From an uncultured Verrucomicrobiae bacterium (GTDB taxonomy: Bacteria > Verrucomicrobiota > Verrucomicrobiia > Chthoniobacterales > Chthoniobacteraceae), in NCBI GenBank assembly GCA_963769025.1, contig CAVYKI010000002.1, positions 320,001-384,000 on the forward strand: DNA of 64,000 bases. The letters are read 5' to 3'. The notes beneath the pieces are model-generated. The model was not told the origin of the DNA. It did not search any database and worked only from the letters and a program-made list of their open reading frames with translations. Below, piece after piece: positions 14,531 to 22,616 of the stretch (positions are counted from its first letter, which is position 1; each line of letters begins with the position of its first letter). The position numbers and the translations under genes are program-made.

Positions 14531-14582
14531 GGAAGATGGAAGATGGAAGATGGAAGATGGAAGATGGAAGATGGAAGATGGA
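14531..14582 (+). repeat. Heptamer tandem array (GGAAGAT)x7
   Basis: Seven perfect GGAAGAT copies at 14531-14579 followed by GGA. Confidence 0.98.
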
Positions 14583-14668: not shown

Positions 14669-14690
14669 GTGAAAATGGAGGATGGAAAAC
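14669..14690 (+). repeat. Degenerate second heptamer array
   Basis: GTGAAAAT GGAGGAT GGAAAAC, three degenerate copies of GGAAGAT. Confidence 0.7.
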
Positions 14691-14736
14691 GACAAGTGCA
14701 CCCGGCACGATGCGCGGCCTCACCGAACAAACTGCA

Positions 14737-15270
14737 ATGGCCAAGTACGAACGCTTTGAAGACCTCCCCGTGTGGCAGGAGGCCGCGAGACTGTATGATA
14801 CCGTCCTCGATTTGATCGAAACCACCCCGGCTCCATTCTCCCCCGGATTTCGCAACCAGCTCGACCGCGCGGCACTCTCCGTGTCGAATAACATCGCCGA
14901 GGGCTTCGAGCGCACCACCACCGCCGAACTCCTCGCCTATATCGGCATCGCCCGCGGCTCCGCCGGTGAAGTCCGCTCCATGATGGCCGTCATCCGCGAC
15001 CGCCCCAGCCTGCGAAAGCACACCGCCGCACTCGACCGCATCCGCGCGCTCGCCGAATCCTGTTCCCGCCAGCTCACCGGCTGGGCCGGCGCCGTCGAGC
15101 GCCTTCCTTTCGAGGGGAAACGGCGCATGCCTGAGAAAGTGAAACACCAGCGGGAAGCCGAAAAGAAGGCCGACGACTTCCGCCTCCTCTTCCTCAGAAC
15201 CCTCAAGCCCACGCACCCCCTCTACAACACCCCCGAAGCCAAGTCCGCCCGCGAATCCCCCGAAGCCTAA
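14737..15270 (+). CDS. Four-helix-bundle protein (23S rRNA IVS protein / Avd-like family), 177 aa
   Basis: RFEDLPVWQEA, NQLDRAALSVSNNIAEGFER and YIGIARGSAGEVRSM are the family signatures; about 55-aa C-terminal extension. Confidence 0.92.
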   Translation: MAKYERFEDLPVWQEAARLYDTVLDLIETTPAPFSPGFRNQLDRAALSVSNNIAEGFERTTTAELLAYIGIARGSAGEVRSMMAVIRDRPSLRKHTAALDRIRALAESCSRQLTGWAGAVERLPFEGKRRMPEKVKHQREAEKKADDFRLLFLRTLKPTHPLYNTPEAKSARESPEA

Positions 15271-15280
15271 CTCCCGCGCT

Positions 15281-15308
15281 CTTTTCCATTTTCCATCTTC
15301 CATCTTCC
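15281..15308 (-). repeat. Inverted heptamer array (reverse complement of GGAAGAT), 4 copies
   Basis: CTTTTCC ATTTTCC ATCTTCC ATCTTCC, ending 1 nt before the ATG at 15310. Confidence 0.92.
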
Positions 15309-17627: not shown

Positions 17628-17900
17628 CCGCACCCCGGAACGAAGCCTGCATCGCCCGGAAGGAAGACTGCATTCGGGAAAAGAAAGACAGAATTCCGGA
17701 AAAGCAAGACTGCATCGCCCGAAAGCAAGACTGCATCGCTGAAAAGGAAGACAGAATCCCAGGAAAGGAAGACTGCATTCGGCAAAAGGAAGACAGAAAC
17801 GCGGAGAAGTAAGACTGCTTTCCCCAAAAGTAAGACTGAATCCGCGGGAAGTAAGACTGCTTTTCCCAAAAGTAAGACTGCTTTTGGCAAAAGTAAGACA
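17628..17900. repeat. 21-nt period tandem array, 12 clear units plus 1 degenerate
   Basis: Units start at 17649 and recur every 21 nt to 17900 with no indels; consensus G(C/A)(A/T)TYNSNSRRAAGNAAGAC(T/A); invariant AAG-N-AAGAC core. Confidence 0.97.
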
Positions 17901-18381
17901 GAAAACGACATTTTCCGGGACGAAAATGTGCCATGCAAGTGTGAATCAGGCGAATGCAACAGACTATCGCCCAAGCATTTGCCAGCGAACCGGCTGGTTT
18001 AGAGTTCTCCACCGCCCCCTTCCCGTCCTCCGTCGAACCGCTGTTCCACGGTTCCACAGTCCCAGGCTTTTCGCTCATTTCCCCCGCCCATGCGGCGGCG
18101 TTCACCGAGGAGGGCGGCTTTACGGAGCGGCTGCACCGGATCCGGAGTGAACGGAGAAAGCACGGTGCCCGATGAACCGGACCACGCCTGCGCCACACAG
18201 GCAAGAGGCGCACGACGGCAGGCGGGTCGGCGTGGTGGTTTCACGATATTGCAACGCACTGGTTAGAAGTTCCAAAACGCATCTTTGAGAACGAAGGCAT
18301 CTCAACAGTGATAGCCGGATGGCCCAAGGCGGCGGCGAGAATTGGGCGCGTATATAGGGCTTCGGAGTGGAGCAAGGCATC

Positions 18382-18397
18382 TGGCACGGCATTGGCT
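18382..18397 (+). promoter_or_regulatory. Candidate sigma54 (-24/-12) promoter
   Basis: TGGCACGGCATTGGCT = GG-N10-GC, about 80 nt upstream of ATG 18476. Confidence 0.6.
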
Positions 18398-18475
18398 ATA
18401 TGCAGAAAACAGGAACCGGGTGAGTGCCTGGTGCCGTTCAAATACACAATACAAAACCAAGGAGACACCGACCCC

Positions 18476-19183
18476 ATGCCACACTGGAACGATGGAACCC
18501 GTTGGGACAGCGGGGCGCGTTGGGCGCCGGCGGCTCCTGTAAAGAAACCAAAATACACCATGGCAATCATCGTCACAAACACAGCCAAGCTGCCCATCCC
18601 GGAAAAACTCCTGAAGGGGCAGGAAATCATCACCATGAGCACGTCGAATCCAAACGTGCCCGGAAACGCCACGATCCTCGCGGCATTTAGCAATGCACAG
18701 GAAGACCTCGTTGCCGCCAACAACGCCCACATCGCCGCCGTGGGCGCATTGAAAAACCTGATGGACCAGCGCGACGACGCGCTCGCGGTCTGGAACAATG
18801 CGCTGAGCAATCTCGCCTCGTTTACGGAGAGCGCCACGCAGGGCGACGGGACCAAGATCACGAGCGCGGGATTTGGCGTGCGGAAGGGGCGCACGCCCAA
18901 GCCCCCGCTCGAAGCGCCGGTCAACCTGCAGGCAAAGACCAATGGTTCGCCCGGCGTGACCAAGCTGTCTTGGAACCCGCTCATCGGGGCCGTGACTTAC
19001 CTTGTTCAGCAGACCCCGGCGCCCGTGGAGGAACCGGTGTGGACGCAGGTGGCCAGCCCCACAAAGTCCTCCTGCGAGACCAACGGCATCGAACCCGGAA
19101 AGACCTACTGGTATCGCGTCGCCGGAGTGGACGCACAGGGCCAGGGCCCGTGGAGCGACCCCGCGTGCCGCCCTGTGATGTAA
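18476..19183 (+). CDS. Fibronectin type III domain protein with helical N-terminal region and Trp-rich leader (alternative start 18560)
   Basis: AGGAG upstream; FN3 pattern [46 protein letters not shown]; no signal peptide. Confidence 0.85.
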
Positions 19184-19197
19184 CACACCCCGCCGCC

Positions 19198-19234
19198 CCC
19201 GCGGCAGGTGGCCGGAAAGGCTGCCTGCTGCGGG
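19198..19234 (+). other. 16-bp stem hairpin with GGAAA loop between FN3 and collagen genes
   Basis: CCCGCGGCAGGTGGCC-GGAAA-GGCTGCCTGCTGCGGG pairs fully when G-U is allowed; no U-tract follows. Confidence 0.75.
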
Positions 19235-19328
19235 CGTAGCGCGGGCTATCCTGCCCGCGAACGAAGCAAACCAATTCACTAGCATACTGACCAATACCCT
19301 TCGCGGACAGGATGGTCCGCATTCCGCC

Positions 19329-19934
19329 ATGCCCTACAACCCTGCACTCCCACTCGATGGCTCGCTCATGGAAGCGGGCGAGATGCGCTCGCAATTCGGC
19401 GGGCTCAAGACGCTGATAGATAACGTGCCTGCCGGGCCTCCCGGGCCGCAGGGTGTGCCAGGGGCGCAGGGACCGCAGGGCGCGCAGGGGGAGCAAGGAC
19501 CGGAAGGGGCGCAGGGCGAACAGGGGCCGCAAGGTCCGCCTTTTGCCAATGCGGTGGTGGATGGCGTGACGACGCTGAACCCCGGTGAGCCGGCCACGGT
19601 GTCCGCACACCTATATGGAAACGATGTGCGGTTCAGCTTTGGCATCCCGCAGGGCTATCCCGGGCCGGACGGCGTTCCCGGGCCGCAAGGTCCGCAGGGC
19701 GTCGAGGGGCCGCAGGGAGCGCAGGGTCCGCAGGGCCCGGAAGGTCCCCAAGGCCCGCAAGGCCAGATGGGCGATGTGAGCATGCAGCAACTGAACGACG
19801 CCATCGCCACGACGGCGCGCAACCCAAGCGCGGTGGGACCTTTCGCCGGAGGTTTCAGCGACCCGCCGACGCAGGTGGAATTGCAGGCATTTGCCAACTA
19901 TGTGGAGTCGCTGCGCATGGCGCTCCTGCGGTAG
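19329..19934 (+). CDS. Collagen-like (Gly-X-Y) fibre protein, 201 aa
   Basis: Two Gly-X-Y blocks (12 and 14 triplets) split by [22 protein letters not shown]-terminal [20 protein letters not shown] helix; no signal peptide. Confidence 0.9.
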
Positions 19935-19970: not shown

Positions 19971-22616
19971 CTAATGGAAGAGGGCAGTCACCCGGTCCCA
20001 GAAGTCCTGGAGCGAATGGTCCCATAGGAAGGCCAGCAGTGCGCCCAAGCCGATCAGCAAGGCGGCGATCAGCAGATACAGCAGGACGCGCCAGCGGAAG
20101 AGTTTCACGATCACTTGGGTGACCAGGAGGAACAGGAATGAGAGGACAACGATGAGCTTGTCCAGGATGGCGAGTGGCACCCGGAGGAAGAATGCGGCTT
20201 TCGATTCAGCCAATGACTGGCGGAGGATTTTCAGCAGCGTGACGGCAGCGCGCCAACTCCAGGCGATTTTCGTTTCGCATGGAAGGGCCTTCATGCCCTC
20301 CATGCCGAGCAGGTCCTTCCTCGGGGGAGGGCCGCCGGCCACTTCGGGAGGTGTCGAGGGTGGCTTGTTGGTGATGCCCATGCCGAGGCTGCGCATTTCG
20401 AGGGCAATCTCCCTCTGCGCCTCGGCGACCATCGCCCTTTTCTGCTCTTCCGTGCCGGGATGCAATTTGCGGATGAGGATCTCGGCGGTGTCGAGGCGTC
20501 CCCATGTCAGGTCATTGCCGCGCCAGTCCTCGTTCAGGAATCCGCCAAAGTGGGCCAATGTCTCCCCCGCGAGCTTTTCCTGGGCCGACAGGCCGGGCAT
20601 GTAGAGATTGGCATCGGCAGGGCTGATGCGGGAAAAATTGATCTGCTGCGTCTCGGCGTCCAGATCCTCGCCGGACATCAGCGGGTAGATAATCATGTCC
20701 CGGAGATAGAAGGAAATGAGGGCATCCCGCAGGACGAGATAGCCATCCGTGACCTTTGCGAGATATGGATTCTCGGAATCCGCGGTGCTGGCCTCCTTCA
20801 ATTTCTCGGTCAGCTCGTCGGTCGCATTCTTCAGCTTGAGACGCACGGTTTCGCACAACCGGGCGAGAAAGTCGGAACGGCGACGGATGAAGGGGGTGCT
20901 ATACAGATTGCCAAACAGCTCGTCGAGCAGCGCCAGGGGGGATCCTGTGTTGGCCTTTCCCTTTCCGGGGAGATGCTCCGAGACTTCCCGGACCCGCGCC
21001 TCGATCTCCACCAACTCCGCGGTAAACGCGTGGGCTTCCGCCTCCTGTCTGCGGACGAGAAGTTCATCCTGCTCGTAGAGAAAGTCCTTCAATCGGTTGA
21101 GCCGCTCCGTTACGCCGTCGATATAGATTTCCCGAAGGCCCGTCCCGTCGCCGGTGCCCGAAGGGCGCTCGGGGTAGAGGGTGCGAATCACGTGCACCAG
21201 ATACTTGCAAAACCGCCGATGATACCGGAGGTCGAGCGAGCCGACGAGGAGGCACTTGATCTGGTAAACCTTTTCCGCGATCTGATGGTTCGGCTTTGCC
21301 TTGGGATGCGCCCTGCCGGCCGCTTCCTCCATGTCTGTCAGAGTCCTGAAGAACTCGGTGATCACTCCGAAGAATTGTTTGGGAAATTCCCGCTGGAGGC
21401 GCAAATCCAGATAAGCGTCCTCTTGTGCGCGGAAGAGCGCAGTGGGGGGATTCTCGGGCGGAATATATTTGAATTTTGATTGAGCGGCTTCTATCTCATC
21501 CTGCTTCGGTTCCGCCTCCGTGGCTGCGGCCGGCGGCTGCTTTTTGTCTTCCTCAAAGCCTTTCCACGCGCGGAATCGGGCCACCTGCGTCTCATAATAA
21601 CTGAGCGTGCGCTGCAAGTCGCGCACATCCACATTGCGCTGCTCGATGTCCTGGAGTGCCGTGGTGATGCTTTGGTAGCCTGGAAGGCCGAGCAGCGCCT
21701 TCATCACGACTTCGGGTCCCGTATAGGGTTTGGGGTCGATCTGGCAGACGCGTGAGCCGACCTGCTCGGGGTCGGGATCGATGTAGAATAGGAGGCGGTG
21801 CACCTTTTTGTTGGCGCGACGTTTTGCGATGGCGCGGAGGGCGAGGTCGATCGGCTTGTTGTCCAGCACGCCGCCATCGATGTGGTATGCATCGGCCTCG
21901 AGGTTGCGGGCGCGTTCCCCGAGCCCGTCCTTTTTTACCAGCACCGGCTCGAATGCGAGCGGGAAGGATGAACTCGCGCGTGCCGCCTGCGCGAGGAGGC
22001 ACATGTCCTCTTCATTATTGAAATCATTGATCTCGGGCGTGTCGGTTCCCGGTTGCTTCTTGCGATAGCGAAAGTGGAAGACCTGGCGGTGGGTCCTGGT
22101 GGGGATCTCCTCGTTGTCCGGGGTCCTAATGAGGACCCTGTCGCCGTCCACGTTCGTGGAGGTCAGGAACAGTTCCAGCGCGTCCTGCAGCGTCTCATCC
22201 AGCGGTGCCGTCCGCTTCGCCAGCAAAGCCTCGAAAATCACGGCGCGAAACCGATCGCCATCGAGCAGGGACTTCGGGCCGGCCTTCCACACGCCGTAGA
22301 GCAGTTTGTCGATGTCACCCTCGGTGCGCCAGAGGTCCAGGAGCTTCCGCATGTCGCCGCGGTTCACGAGGGCGTTTCCGAGAAATGCCCCGTTCAGCCC
22401 GCCGGCGGATGTCCCGGTGATGATGTCCACCACCACGTCGCCGATCAGGTCTTTCAACTGCGCGTAAACGCCTTCGCCTTTCACGAGCCGGAAGAACTCG
22501 AGTGCGACTCCGCTCTCGTAAACCGCGAGGGCGACCCCGCCGAAAAATGAGAGGGCGATGCGCGTTTCACAAATACTCCCAACGGTGGGAGCGGACTTGG
22601 CGGAGTCGGTGTTCAT
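19971..22616 (-). CDS. Patatin-like phospholipase with DUF3376 and C-terminal membrane helices
   Basis: GGVALAVYESGV glycine loop, GTSAG nucleophile, DGGVLDNKP, LAHFGGFL..WRGNDLTWGRLD (DUF3376), two hydrophobic C-terminal segments. Confidence 0.9.
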   Translation of the reverse strand: MNTDSAKSAPTVGSICETRIALSFFGGVALAVYESGVALEFFRLVKGEGVYAQLKDLIGDVVVDIITGTSAGGLNGAFLGNALVNRGDMRKLLDLWRTEGDIDKLLYGVWKAGPKSLLDGDRFRAVIFEALLAKRTAPLDETLQDALELFLTSTNVDGDRVLIRTPDNEEIPTRTHRQVFHFRYRKKQPGTDTPEINDFNNEEDMCLLAQAARASSSFPLAFEPVLVKKDGLGERARNLEADAYHIDGGVLDNKPIDLALRAIAKRRANKKVHRLLFYIDPDPEQVGSRVCQIDPKPYTGPEVVMKALLGLPGYQSITTALQDIEQRNVDVRDLQRTLSYYETQVARFRAWKGFEEDKKQPPAAATEAEPKQDEIEAAQSKFKYIPPENPPTALFRAQEDAYLDLRLQREFPKQFFGVITEFFRTLTDMEEAAGRAHPKAKPNHQIAEKVYQIKCLLVGSLDLRYHRRFCKYLVHVIRTLYPERPSGTGDGTGLREIYIDGVTERLNRLKDFLYEQDELLVRRQEAEAHAFTAELVEIEARVREVSEHLPGKGKANTGSPLALLDELFGNLYSTPFIRRRSDFLARLCETVRLKLKNATDELTEKLKEASTADSENPYLAKVTDGYLVLRDALISFYLRDMIIYPLMSGEDLDAETQQINFSRISPADANLYMPGLSAQEKLAGETLAHFGGFLNEDWRGNDLTWGRLDTAEILIRKLHPGTEEQKRAMVAEAQREIALEMRSLGMGITNKPPSTPPEVAGGPPPRKDLLGMEGMKALPCETKIAWSWRAAVTLLKILRQSLAESKAAFFLRVPLAILDKLIVVLSFLFLLVTQVIVKLFRWRVLLYLLIAALLIGLGALLAFLWDHSLQDFWDRVTALFH

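Follow-up and report, generated by a model that had tools for sequence, protein, structure and literature searches.

A phased 21-nucleotide tandem array upstream of an FN3-family gene forms an apparently undescribed, recurrent cassette in Verrucomicrobiota

Does a tandem array of 21-nucleotide (nt) repeats lying in front of two small genes of an uncultured Verrucomicrobiae bacterium belong to those genes, and if so, what might it do for them? The question is raised by positions 17628–19934 of the window, by which is meant the whole 64,000-nt stretch that was analyzed (positions 320001–384000 of contig C2 in genome G000, an assembly of 5.34 Mb in 13 contigs with a G+C content (GC) of 64%). The labels C2, C3, C6, C9, C10, and C13 refer to contigs of this genome, L-numbers to homologous or array loci, and G-numbers to genomes. 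An earlier note on this DNA had listed five parts, namely the array, a GG-N10-GC promoter, a gene for a protein with an FN3 domain, a hairpin, and a gene for a collagen-like protein, and each of them was recovered in place, with both genes in the same orientation (plus strand). The five parts are a recurrent cassette rather than a chance cluster. That they belong together, as the note had proposed, is upheld by our analysis, and apart from the FN3 and collagen parts they match no family named in Pfam, NCBIfam, PADLOC, or PHROGs. The array is linked in position and orientation to the family of the first gene over a wide evolutionary distance, and from locus to locus the period and length are conserved but the sequence is not.

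Whole-genome searches were made with a profile of 16 relatives of the first-gene protein. The profile matched 44 genomes in a phylum sample of 401, mostly via the FN3 part alone, and the matches reaching the helical domain that precedes FN3 came from G000, G287, G048, and G142, with a partial one in G354. Within the order, 23 of 201 genomes were matched at E ≤ 1e-10, in 30 places. The array survey covered 32 oriented loci with 1.5-kb flanks, taken from the 23 matching genomes of the order, with two more from the phylum sample, and scanned with Tandem Repeats Finder (TRF). Upstream of the gene, 21 of the 32 loci contain an array with a period of 21, 22, or a multiple (42), compared with one locus that has an array downstream, actually a 7-mer repeat, and none with an array inside the gene. 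The enrichment of homologues for 21-nt arrays, on which the earlier note had staked its proposal, is thereby borne out. Among the genomes with linked arrays the GC of the array ranges from 30% to 73%. At the lower end, with arrays of ~30% GC, all four paralogs in G142, which are 46–51% identical, have a 21-nt array of their own. Nine cassette first genes are found in the genome of the window, and for seven of them the upstream periodicity is at least 0.6, compared with 6 of 1000 random 1.5-kb segments; the eighth has a periodicity of 0.58, above the 99th percentile, and the ninth (C10) has a 22-nt array after the gene. A broader profile identifies five clear family members in this genome, namely the window gene and those at C6:596.6 kb, C6:654.5 kb, C9:551 kb, and C9:1247 kb. 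The narrow helical-domain profile found no paralog in this genome, and the paralogs are seen only with the broad profile.

The linked arrays resemble each other in dimensions and differ in sequence. Their lengths are mostly 200–275 bp (10–13 units), with exactly 12 units in 7 of 21. In 11 of the 21 the autocorrelation at 42 nt equals or exceeds that at 21 nt, indicating that two unit types often alternate, and in some sister arrays 42-nt units built around a 15-bp palindrome are repeated 8.7–10 times. A dyad of ~15 bp, or a pair of opposed 7-nt half-sites ~10.5 bp apart, is found in many units; the window array is of the direct-repeat type. Unit sequences are unrelated between loci, with any shared 9-mer present in only 28 of 190 array pairs. 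Between L041 and L045, which come from the same genus and encode proteins that are 67% identical, the half-site CGATTCA/TGAATCG is retained and 36 9-mers are shared. Invariant unit positions are clustered in 6 of 16 arrays (P < 0.05). The neighbors of the homologous loci were scanned with Pfam, covering 122 of 158 listed open reading frames (ORFs) upstream, after exclusion by hand of own-locus ORFs and those over or beside arrays, and 78 of 80 listed ORFs downstream, the two own-locus ORFs being excluded. No Pfam-defined neighbor recurs on either side of the cassettes in this set. The conserved core therefore consists of the array and the first gene, because no other neighbor recurs and the collagen-like gene is limited to one genus. 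At 9 of 29 homologous loci (L002, L033, L036, L039, L047, L048, L056, L057, and L058), restriction-modification, Vsr, TIR, antitoxin, or integrase genes lie directly upstream of the array, which suggests that the cassettes often sit in variable or defense islands.

In the window the array extends from 17639 to 17911 and keeps the exact 21-nt period that the earlier note had described, with 13 units in register as judged by TRF, a repeat search, and a layout of the register. TRF reports period 21 at 17642–17881 (11.4 copies) and at 17807–17899, and the repeat search found 10 register-true copies, with nine consecutive spacings that are all exactly 21. The unit is made up of a 14-nt core, AAGnAAGAC(T/A)G(C/A)(A/T)T, and then a variable stretch of about 7 bases; nine positions are invariant and the 7-nt spacer is different in nearly every unit. 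Units at the 5′ side carry AAG(G/A/C)AAG and those at the 3′ side AAGTAAG, such that neighbors are more alike than distant units, indicating that the array also grew by local duplication. At the 3′ edge of the array a short inverted repeat (ACATTTTC, a 6-nt loop, and GAAAATGT; 17908–17929) can be read from the sequence, and a non-coding spacer of ~450 nt with a GC of ~0.60–0.62 (17930–18381) leads from the array to the promoter. The locally lower GC that had been noted for the region as a whole is found over the array (0.50) and the 5′ part of the first gene (0.54–0.59), and not over the collagen-like gene (0.66–0.70), the genome value being 0.64.

All 22 occurrences of the 14-nt core in the genome (5.34 Mb) fall within this array or a sister array on the same contig (C2:421829–422177; L072:1330–1678), and a search for isolated copies at other places, such as a regulator gene, found none. 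The sister array contains ~15 units with a core identical to that of the window array, and the DNA common to both loci consists of the array and ~45 nt of its 3′ edge (by blastn, with the edge placed by eye). On its 3′ side there are CCGTCCCA-type 8-mer repeats and an ISL3 transposase, and no cassette gene. In total the genome contains about 15–19 long arrays, which fall into several unrelated families. Among all tandem repeats of the genome, a period of 21 is the most frequent, with 91 TRF rows at a score of at least 50, compared with 51 for period 18, 26 for 24, 12 for 22, and 10 for 20. There are 106 merged arrays with a period of 21, 22, or multiples, 65 of which lie in coding-like frames and are mostly ~40–50 nt long. 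A member of the array family found at the C6:654 kb cassette lies directly upstream of mfd, encoding the transcription-repair coupling factor (C9:1222853–1223053; L073), and the array families are thus not confined to fiber cassettes.

The array is non-coding. Four of its six reading frames are open, and no codon position exceeds a GC of 0.59, compared with a third-position GC of 0.75–0.9 in real genes of this genome. These values, together with the 22-nt periods that occur among sister arrays at related loci, speak against the heptad peptide that the earlier note had considered as a product of the array. The small ORFs of the spacer between the array and the promoter lack a coding signal as well; their third-position GC is not raised, and neither the genome nor the homologous loci contain relatives of them. 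A non-coding RNA, also put forward in the note, is disfavored as a structured RNA because the array folds like shuffled sequences (z = −0.6) and changes in the dyad arms mostly break pairing. Deviations of the arms from the array consensus comprise 111 that are broken, 51 of the G-U type, and 19 that are compensated, and this pattern argues against selection for RNA hairpins. Rfam yielded one match on the locus (E 0.96), far under the gathering score. Arrays of clustered regularly interspaced short palindromic repeats (CRISPR) consist of ~23–50-nt repeats separated by unique spacers of about the same length and are accompanied by cas genes. Such an array was rejected on the basis of the 14-nt core with its 7-nt spacer, the sub-threshold Rfam match, and the lack of a Cas domain in the five flanking genes scanned.

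The first cassette gene (18476–19183, plus strand) encodes a protein of 235 residues. From Pfam, alignments, and an AlphaFold2 model it comprises a Trp-rich leader (residues 1–17), a basic linker extending to Met-29, a helical domain (residues ~30–145), and an FN3 domain (residues 147–229). The FN3 assignment in the earlier note is confirmed by Pfam (fn3, PF00041; residues 147–229; E 3.6e-8; 34 bits with a cut-off of 25). Among 780 candidates, 111 relatives were found at E ≤ 0.001, with 42–71% identity; they are unnamed or called FN3 proteins, and one has a Chthoniobacteraceae label. The AlphaFold2 model, based on a 54-row alignment, has a mean predicted local distance difference test score of 86.6 and a predicted template-modeling (TM) score of 0.46, and shows a poorly ordered N-terminus, helices at residues 41–55, 65–120, and 125–130, and a seven-strand FN3 sandwich at residues 152–226. 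In Foldseek searches of the PDB and viral models the FN3 part alone was matched, with a TM-score of 0.8 to FN3 chains, and the helical domain had no match in either set. Atlas matches to the helical part are unnamed clusters with scores of 0.88–0.90.

A profile of the helical domain from 24 loci matched 6351 representative clusters (50% identity) at E ≤ 0.001 and 3002 at E ≤ 1e-10. The members of this family are mostly ~205 residues long and consist of the helical domain and FN3. No Pfam model covers the helical domain in the window protein or in 12 other members tested, NCBIfam gave no significant family for three members, with one match far under its cut-off, and PADLOC gave no match for the first-gene protein. 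The median net charge of the helical domain is 0 across 30 relatives, so the domain does not look nucleic acid-binding, and the suggestion in the earlier note that the FN3 protein itself binds the array finds no support here. Metagenome contigs searched with the first-gene protein gave matches to the FN3 part only and no close relatives. Two soil-metagenome DNA runs contain 9–12% of the locus words; these runs yielded a few identical pieces of 150–190 nt and weak matches to the collagen tracts, with none across the array.

The leader is shared by the cassette first genes of this genome. Its motif, W-(D/N)-x-G...W-(D/N)-x-G, occurs eight times when the ORFs of all six frames are considered; seven of these occurrences are the N-termini of cassette first genes and one is a simple-repeat artifact, and two further cassette first genes carry variants of it. 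After the leader come a linker rich in Pro and Lys and then a second Met, and it is at this Met that the 207-residue forms of the family start. First genes with no detectable relationship in the body of the protein, such as those at C13, C10, and C2:176 kb, have the leader in common. In the wide family, 4 of 14 N-terminally extended members have aromatic-Asp-x-Gly leaders of like design, and 2 more of these 14 have heptad-periodic N-termini resembling translated arrays. Neither the FN3 protein nor the collagen-like protein has a hydrophobic stretch at its N-terminus as judged by eye, in agreement with the earlier remark that both lack a signal peptide. We read the leader as a putative sorting or assembly tag. 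In one paralog of the first gene (L095; C6:596353–597355) the reading frame is split by a frameshift, with the leader and linker in one frame and the helical domain and FN3 in the next, which could reflect a pseudogene, an assembly error, or programmed frameshifting.

The promoter reported in the earlier note is of the sigma-54 −24/−12 type. Its sequence, TGGCACGGCATTGGCT (18382–18397, plus strand), agrees with 11 of the 12 specified positions of TGGCACG-N4-TTGCW, and only 23 sites in the whole genome, counting both strands and including this one, score 11 or higher. It is oriented correctly for the first gene, whose ATG (18476) follows 79 nt downstream, and is separated from the array by 470 nt. 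The genome contains rpoN, with one Sigma54_DBD match (E 3.4e-59), and eleven Sigma54_activat matches at ~7 loci. A TGGCAY-N8-GC(T/C) site is present 75–172 nt before the equivalent of Met-29 in 8 of the 32 homologous loci. Where both features occur (in four clear loci and a fifth whose array is weak), the array comes first, then the promoter and the gene, and 70–490 nt separate array and promoter.

The second cassette gene (19329–19934, plus strand) encodes a collagen-like fiber protein of 201 residues, identified by Pfam, six paralogs, and an alignment in which the row for L066 was disregarded. As the earlier note had supposed, it belongs to Pfam Collagen (PF01391), which matches in two stretches with E 1.8e-14 and 53.7 bits, compared with a cut-off of 27.2. 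Gly-X-Y tracts at residues ~34–71 and 108–149 are arranged around a small beta module, and the paralogs share an N-terminal motif, the beta module flanked by Gly-X-Y, and a C-terminal SDPPTQ...LRR tail. The nearest Atlas clusters are collagen-like proteins, with Verrucomicrobiota as the commonest phylum. Each of the six paralogs in this genome lies within ~2 kb of an array and is preceded by a gene with a Trp-rich leader. Collagen-like genes are the only family recurring downstream across the order, at five loci that all belong to the genus of this genome. At these five loci the collagen-like gene accompanies a homologue of the first gene, as the earlier note had envisaged, but it is not in the conserved core and is a genus-level addition.

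Between the two genes, a perfect 16-bp hairpin with a 5-nt loop (19198–19234, plus strand), as seen in the earlier note, begins 15 nt past the stop codon of the first gene. Folding also gives a second, long-range stem (19241–19320, plus strand) that closes just 5′ of the start codon of the collagen-like gene. The intergenic spacer with both stems folds at z = −4.7 relative to shuffled sequences. No U-run lies behind the 19198–19234 hairpin, and it was not called as an intrinsic terminator. In paralogous cassettes (C9:550–553 kb, C9:1246–1249 kb, C6:654–656 kb, C3:2–6 kb, and C13:19–22 kb), simple repeats of 7–8 nt in 4–7 copies, or 16-mers at C13, are found directly before and sometimes after the collagen-like genes; the window cassette has its two strong stems where those cassettes have the simple repeats.

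The surroundings of the cassette do not bear out the view that it is mobile or phage-derived, with no integrase, transposase, or other phage gene among the ORFs and domains examined at the locus. A prophage or tail-fiber module was likewise rejected, given that the neighbors are DUF2231, DUF5670, patatin/DUF3376, YkuD, and PhoD-like proteins and that PHROG matches are limited to the FN3 and Gly-X-Y parts. Convergent with the cassette, at 19971–22616 on the minus strand, is a gene for an 881-residue patatin-like phospholipase with DUF3376. This protein weakly matches the PADLOC phospholipase effector model (E 2.2e-6) and has no match at E ≤ 1e-30 in five related genomes. Further upstream, a gene of the four-helix-bundle 23S_rRNA_IVP family (14686–15270) is positioned between (GGAAGAT)x7 at 14532–14581 and (TTCCATC)x3.6 at 15284–15308, the 7-mer repeats forming an opposite-orientation pair in which the downstream copy is the inverted one.

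What, then, might the array do for the cassette? We give about an even chance to the array controlling the cassette as a helically phased protein-docking platform with multiple sites, a reading that coincides with the DNA platform named among the options of the earlier note. The 13 docking sites would be exactly two helical turns apart, a spacing that would place all of them on one face of the helix. A sequence-specific regulator would coat the array cooperatively, and the coated array would switch the sigma-54-type promoter either on through looping, as an enhancer does, or off by occlusion, as an operator or silencer does. The promoter would drive the gene for the Trp-leader/helical/FN3 protein, and the collagen-like gene would be expressed by read-through or attenuation at the intergenic hairpins, which would set the ratio of the two products. 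Both products may be exported fiber or surface parts, with the Trp-rich leader acting as a sorting or assembly tag. Protein binding to the array, the control of transcription, and the direction of that control are all inferred from the arrangement of the locus.

Several observations weigh against a docking platform acting on a sigma-54 promoter. Only about 8–9 of the 32 homologous loci carry a −24/−12 site, and the excess is modest, with a best score of at least 9 in 9 of the 32 loci on the forward strand; the reverse strand gives 4 such loci and the downstream controls 2. In this genome, no such site scoring 10 or higher is present in the other 15 array/cassette regions checked. A distance of 470 nt and a number of 13 sites far exceed what is usual for sigma-54 enhancers. 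No sigma-54 activator gene adjoins the window locus, and the ~15–19 long arrays of the array families, set against ~7 activator loci, make one activator per array family impossible. No regulator recurs beside the cassettes among the 122 upstream and 78 downstream ORFs, and no reader of the array was found; the DNA-binding or regulator domains in these 200 flanking ORFs are restricted to single instances of GerE, Put_DNA-bind_N, and GntR (the last below the Pfam cut-off) and an ORF of the response-regulator/histidine-kinase type. There are, in addition, arrays in front of mfd and, with no cassette gene, beside insertion sequences. In this genome an XRE gene and a GerE gene are found beside two of the cassettes. 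A more far-reaching reading, which we regard as unlikely, is that the array of each cassette would serve as its own "address" for a matched factor, such as its own product, the leader, or array RNA, allowing fiber genes to be expressed singly. If true, this would amount to a bacterial version of the expression-site control known from antigenic variation, and a new type of helically phased DNA element would serve at least 6351 protein clusters.

The same repeats could in principle act as RNA. Under this explanation, which we consider doubtful, the array would be transcribed and its repeats would serve as a scaffold, a sponge, or a ToxI-like antitoxin partner of the cassette protein. Type III toxin-antitoxin loci have 1.9–5.6 repeats of 31–62 nt, a terminator hairpin, and a gene that mostly starts 1–50 bp further on (PMC3401426). 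The order of repeats and then gene resembles these loci, and the 42-nt super-period seen in 11 of 21 arrays falls within the 31–62-nt range given there for ToxI-like repeats (PMC3401426). The restriction-modification, TIR, or integrase genes adjoining 9 of 29 homologous loci are neighbors that defense genes often have, and locus-specific repeats would suit recognition by an equally divergent cassette protein. In number and distance, however, the arrays depart from the values in the same source, with 10–13 units rather than 1.9–5.6 and gaps of 135–630 nt rather than mostly 1–50 (PMC3401426). A type III locus was rejected for this cassette in particular, where 13 units of 21 nt lie 565 nt from the ATG with no terminator-like site on the plus strand between them. 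The protein does not look like a type III toxin either, since it combines a helical domain with FN3 in the AlphaFold2 model, has only FN3 matches in Foldseek and none in PADLOC, and is not a nuclease of the ToxN/AbiQ type. Array RNA is no more stable than shuffled sequences, arm changes seldom compensate, and the helical domain is not basic. A sigma-54 site between the array and the gene would, moreover, leave the array outside that transcript, which counts against an RNA partner.

The arrangement also invites comparison with phase variation, in which slippage of 21-nt units would alter promoter geometry and thereby toggle members of the fiber family. The multi-copy nature of the family in this genome (9 cassette genes and 7 collagen-like genes), the similarity of neighboring units as a mark of local duplication, and the 7–8-nt simple repeats right before the collagen-like gene in paralogous cassettes are consistent with such a contingency switch. 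Changes by whole 21-bp units would keep the helical phase, however, which makes for a poor spacing switch, and array length is similar at unrelated loci, with exactly 12 units in 7 of 21; we hold this explanation to be improbable. A further and quite improbable explanation is that the arrays are satellite DNA without a function, readily generated in this lineage and simply building up in long intergenic regions, as might be expected from the prevalence of period 21 among the tandem repeats of the genome, from the arrays situated away from cassettes, and from the fast turnover of sequence. Against this, the arrays are one-sided to one gene family across 30–73% GC and keep their length and period, invariant cores stand beside variable spacers, half-sites are kept between loci whose proteins are 67% identical, and the background is 6 of 1000 segments. 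In size, period, and repeat number the arrays are like iterons and the sopC array, as would fit a replication origin or a partition centromere of an integrated plasmid-like element. We consider this highly improbable, as there is no Rep, ParA, or ParB gene at the locus or in the 200 flanking ORFs, and ~15–19 arrays are present on a single chromosome and tied to a structural-looking gene. An iteron or sopC-type centromere was accordingly rejected from the Pfam scan of the locus and of the 122 upstream and 78 downstream ORFs, which found no rep, parA, or parB.

With the docking platform as the preferred explanation, the combination of a cis-element with a gene cassette is real, recurrent, and apparently undescribed, and searches of full-text literature found no description of such arrays with this gene family. 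The first gene belongs to a large family (6351 clusters) that is named by no library searched. Conserved spacing and length with replaced sequence is an unusual rule for a bacterial control region. Two questions would become testable, namely how rows of sites on one face of the DNA are read and how multi-copy fiber cassettes are regulated. The Trp-rich leader shared by proteins that by eye lack Sec/Tat signals hints at a sorting or assembly route that may so far have escaped recognition.

The element can be compared with several known systems. With the type III toxin-antitoxin systems ToxIN, CptIN, and TenpIN it has in common the locus-specific tandem repeats upstream of a small gene and some defense neighborhoods. 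Simple-sequence contingency loci have repeats in front of surface-protein genes and switch them on and off. Like these, the cassettes form a multigene, fiber-like family with repeats in front, and 7–8-nt repeats precede the collagen-like gene in paralogs; unlike these, the 21-nt unit preserves helical phase and reading frame, and loci differ little in array length. In plasmid F, the sopC centromere consists of 12 tandem 43-bp repeats, each with an inverted repeat. Iterons and sopC share with the arrays their great length, units of ~21–22 or 42–43 bp, a conserved core with a variable spacer, and small dyads, whereas here there are no rep or par genes and many chromosomal arrays, each tied to a small FN3-family gene. 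Sigma-54 enhancers, such as the NtrC sites of glnAp2, comprise 2–5 upstream sites at variable distance, often dyads on one helix face. The cassettes differ from them in having 10–13 strict 21-bp sites of locus-specific sequence up to 490 nt away, no adjacent activator gene, and many array cassettes without a −24/−12 site. They agree with them in that the order of array, promoter, and gene is kept where both features are present and that rpoN is present. In its presumed mode of action the element comes closest to a sigma-54 enhancer or a long operator array, and in appearance to the iteron and sopC arrays.

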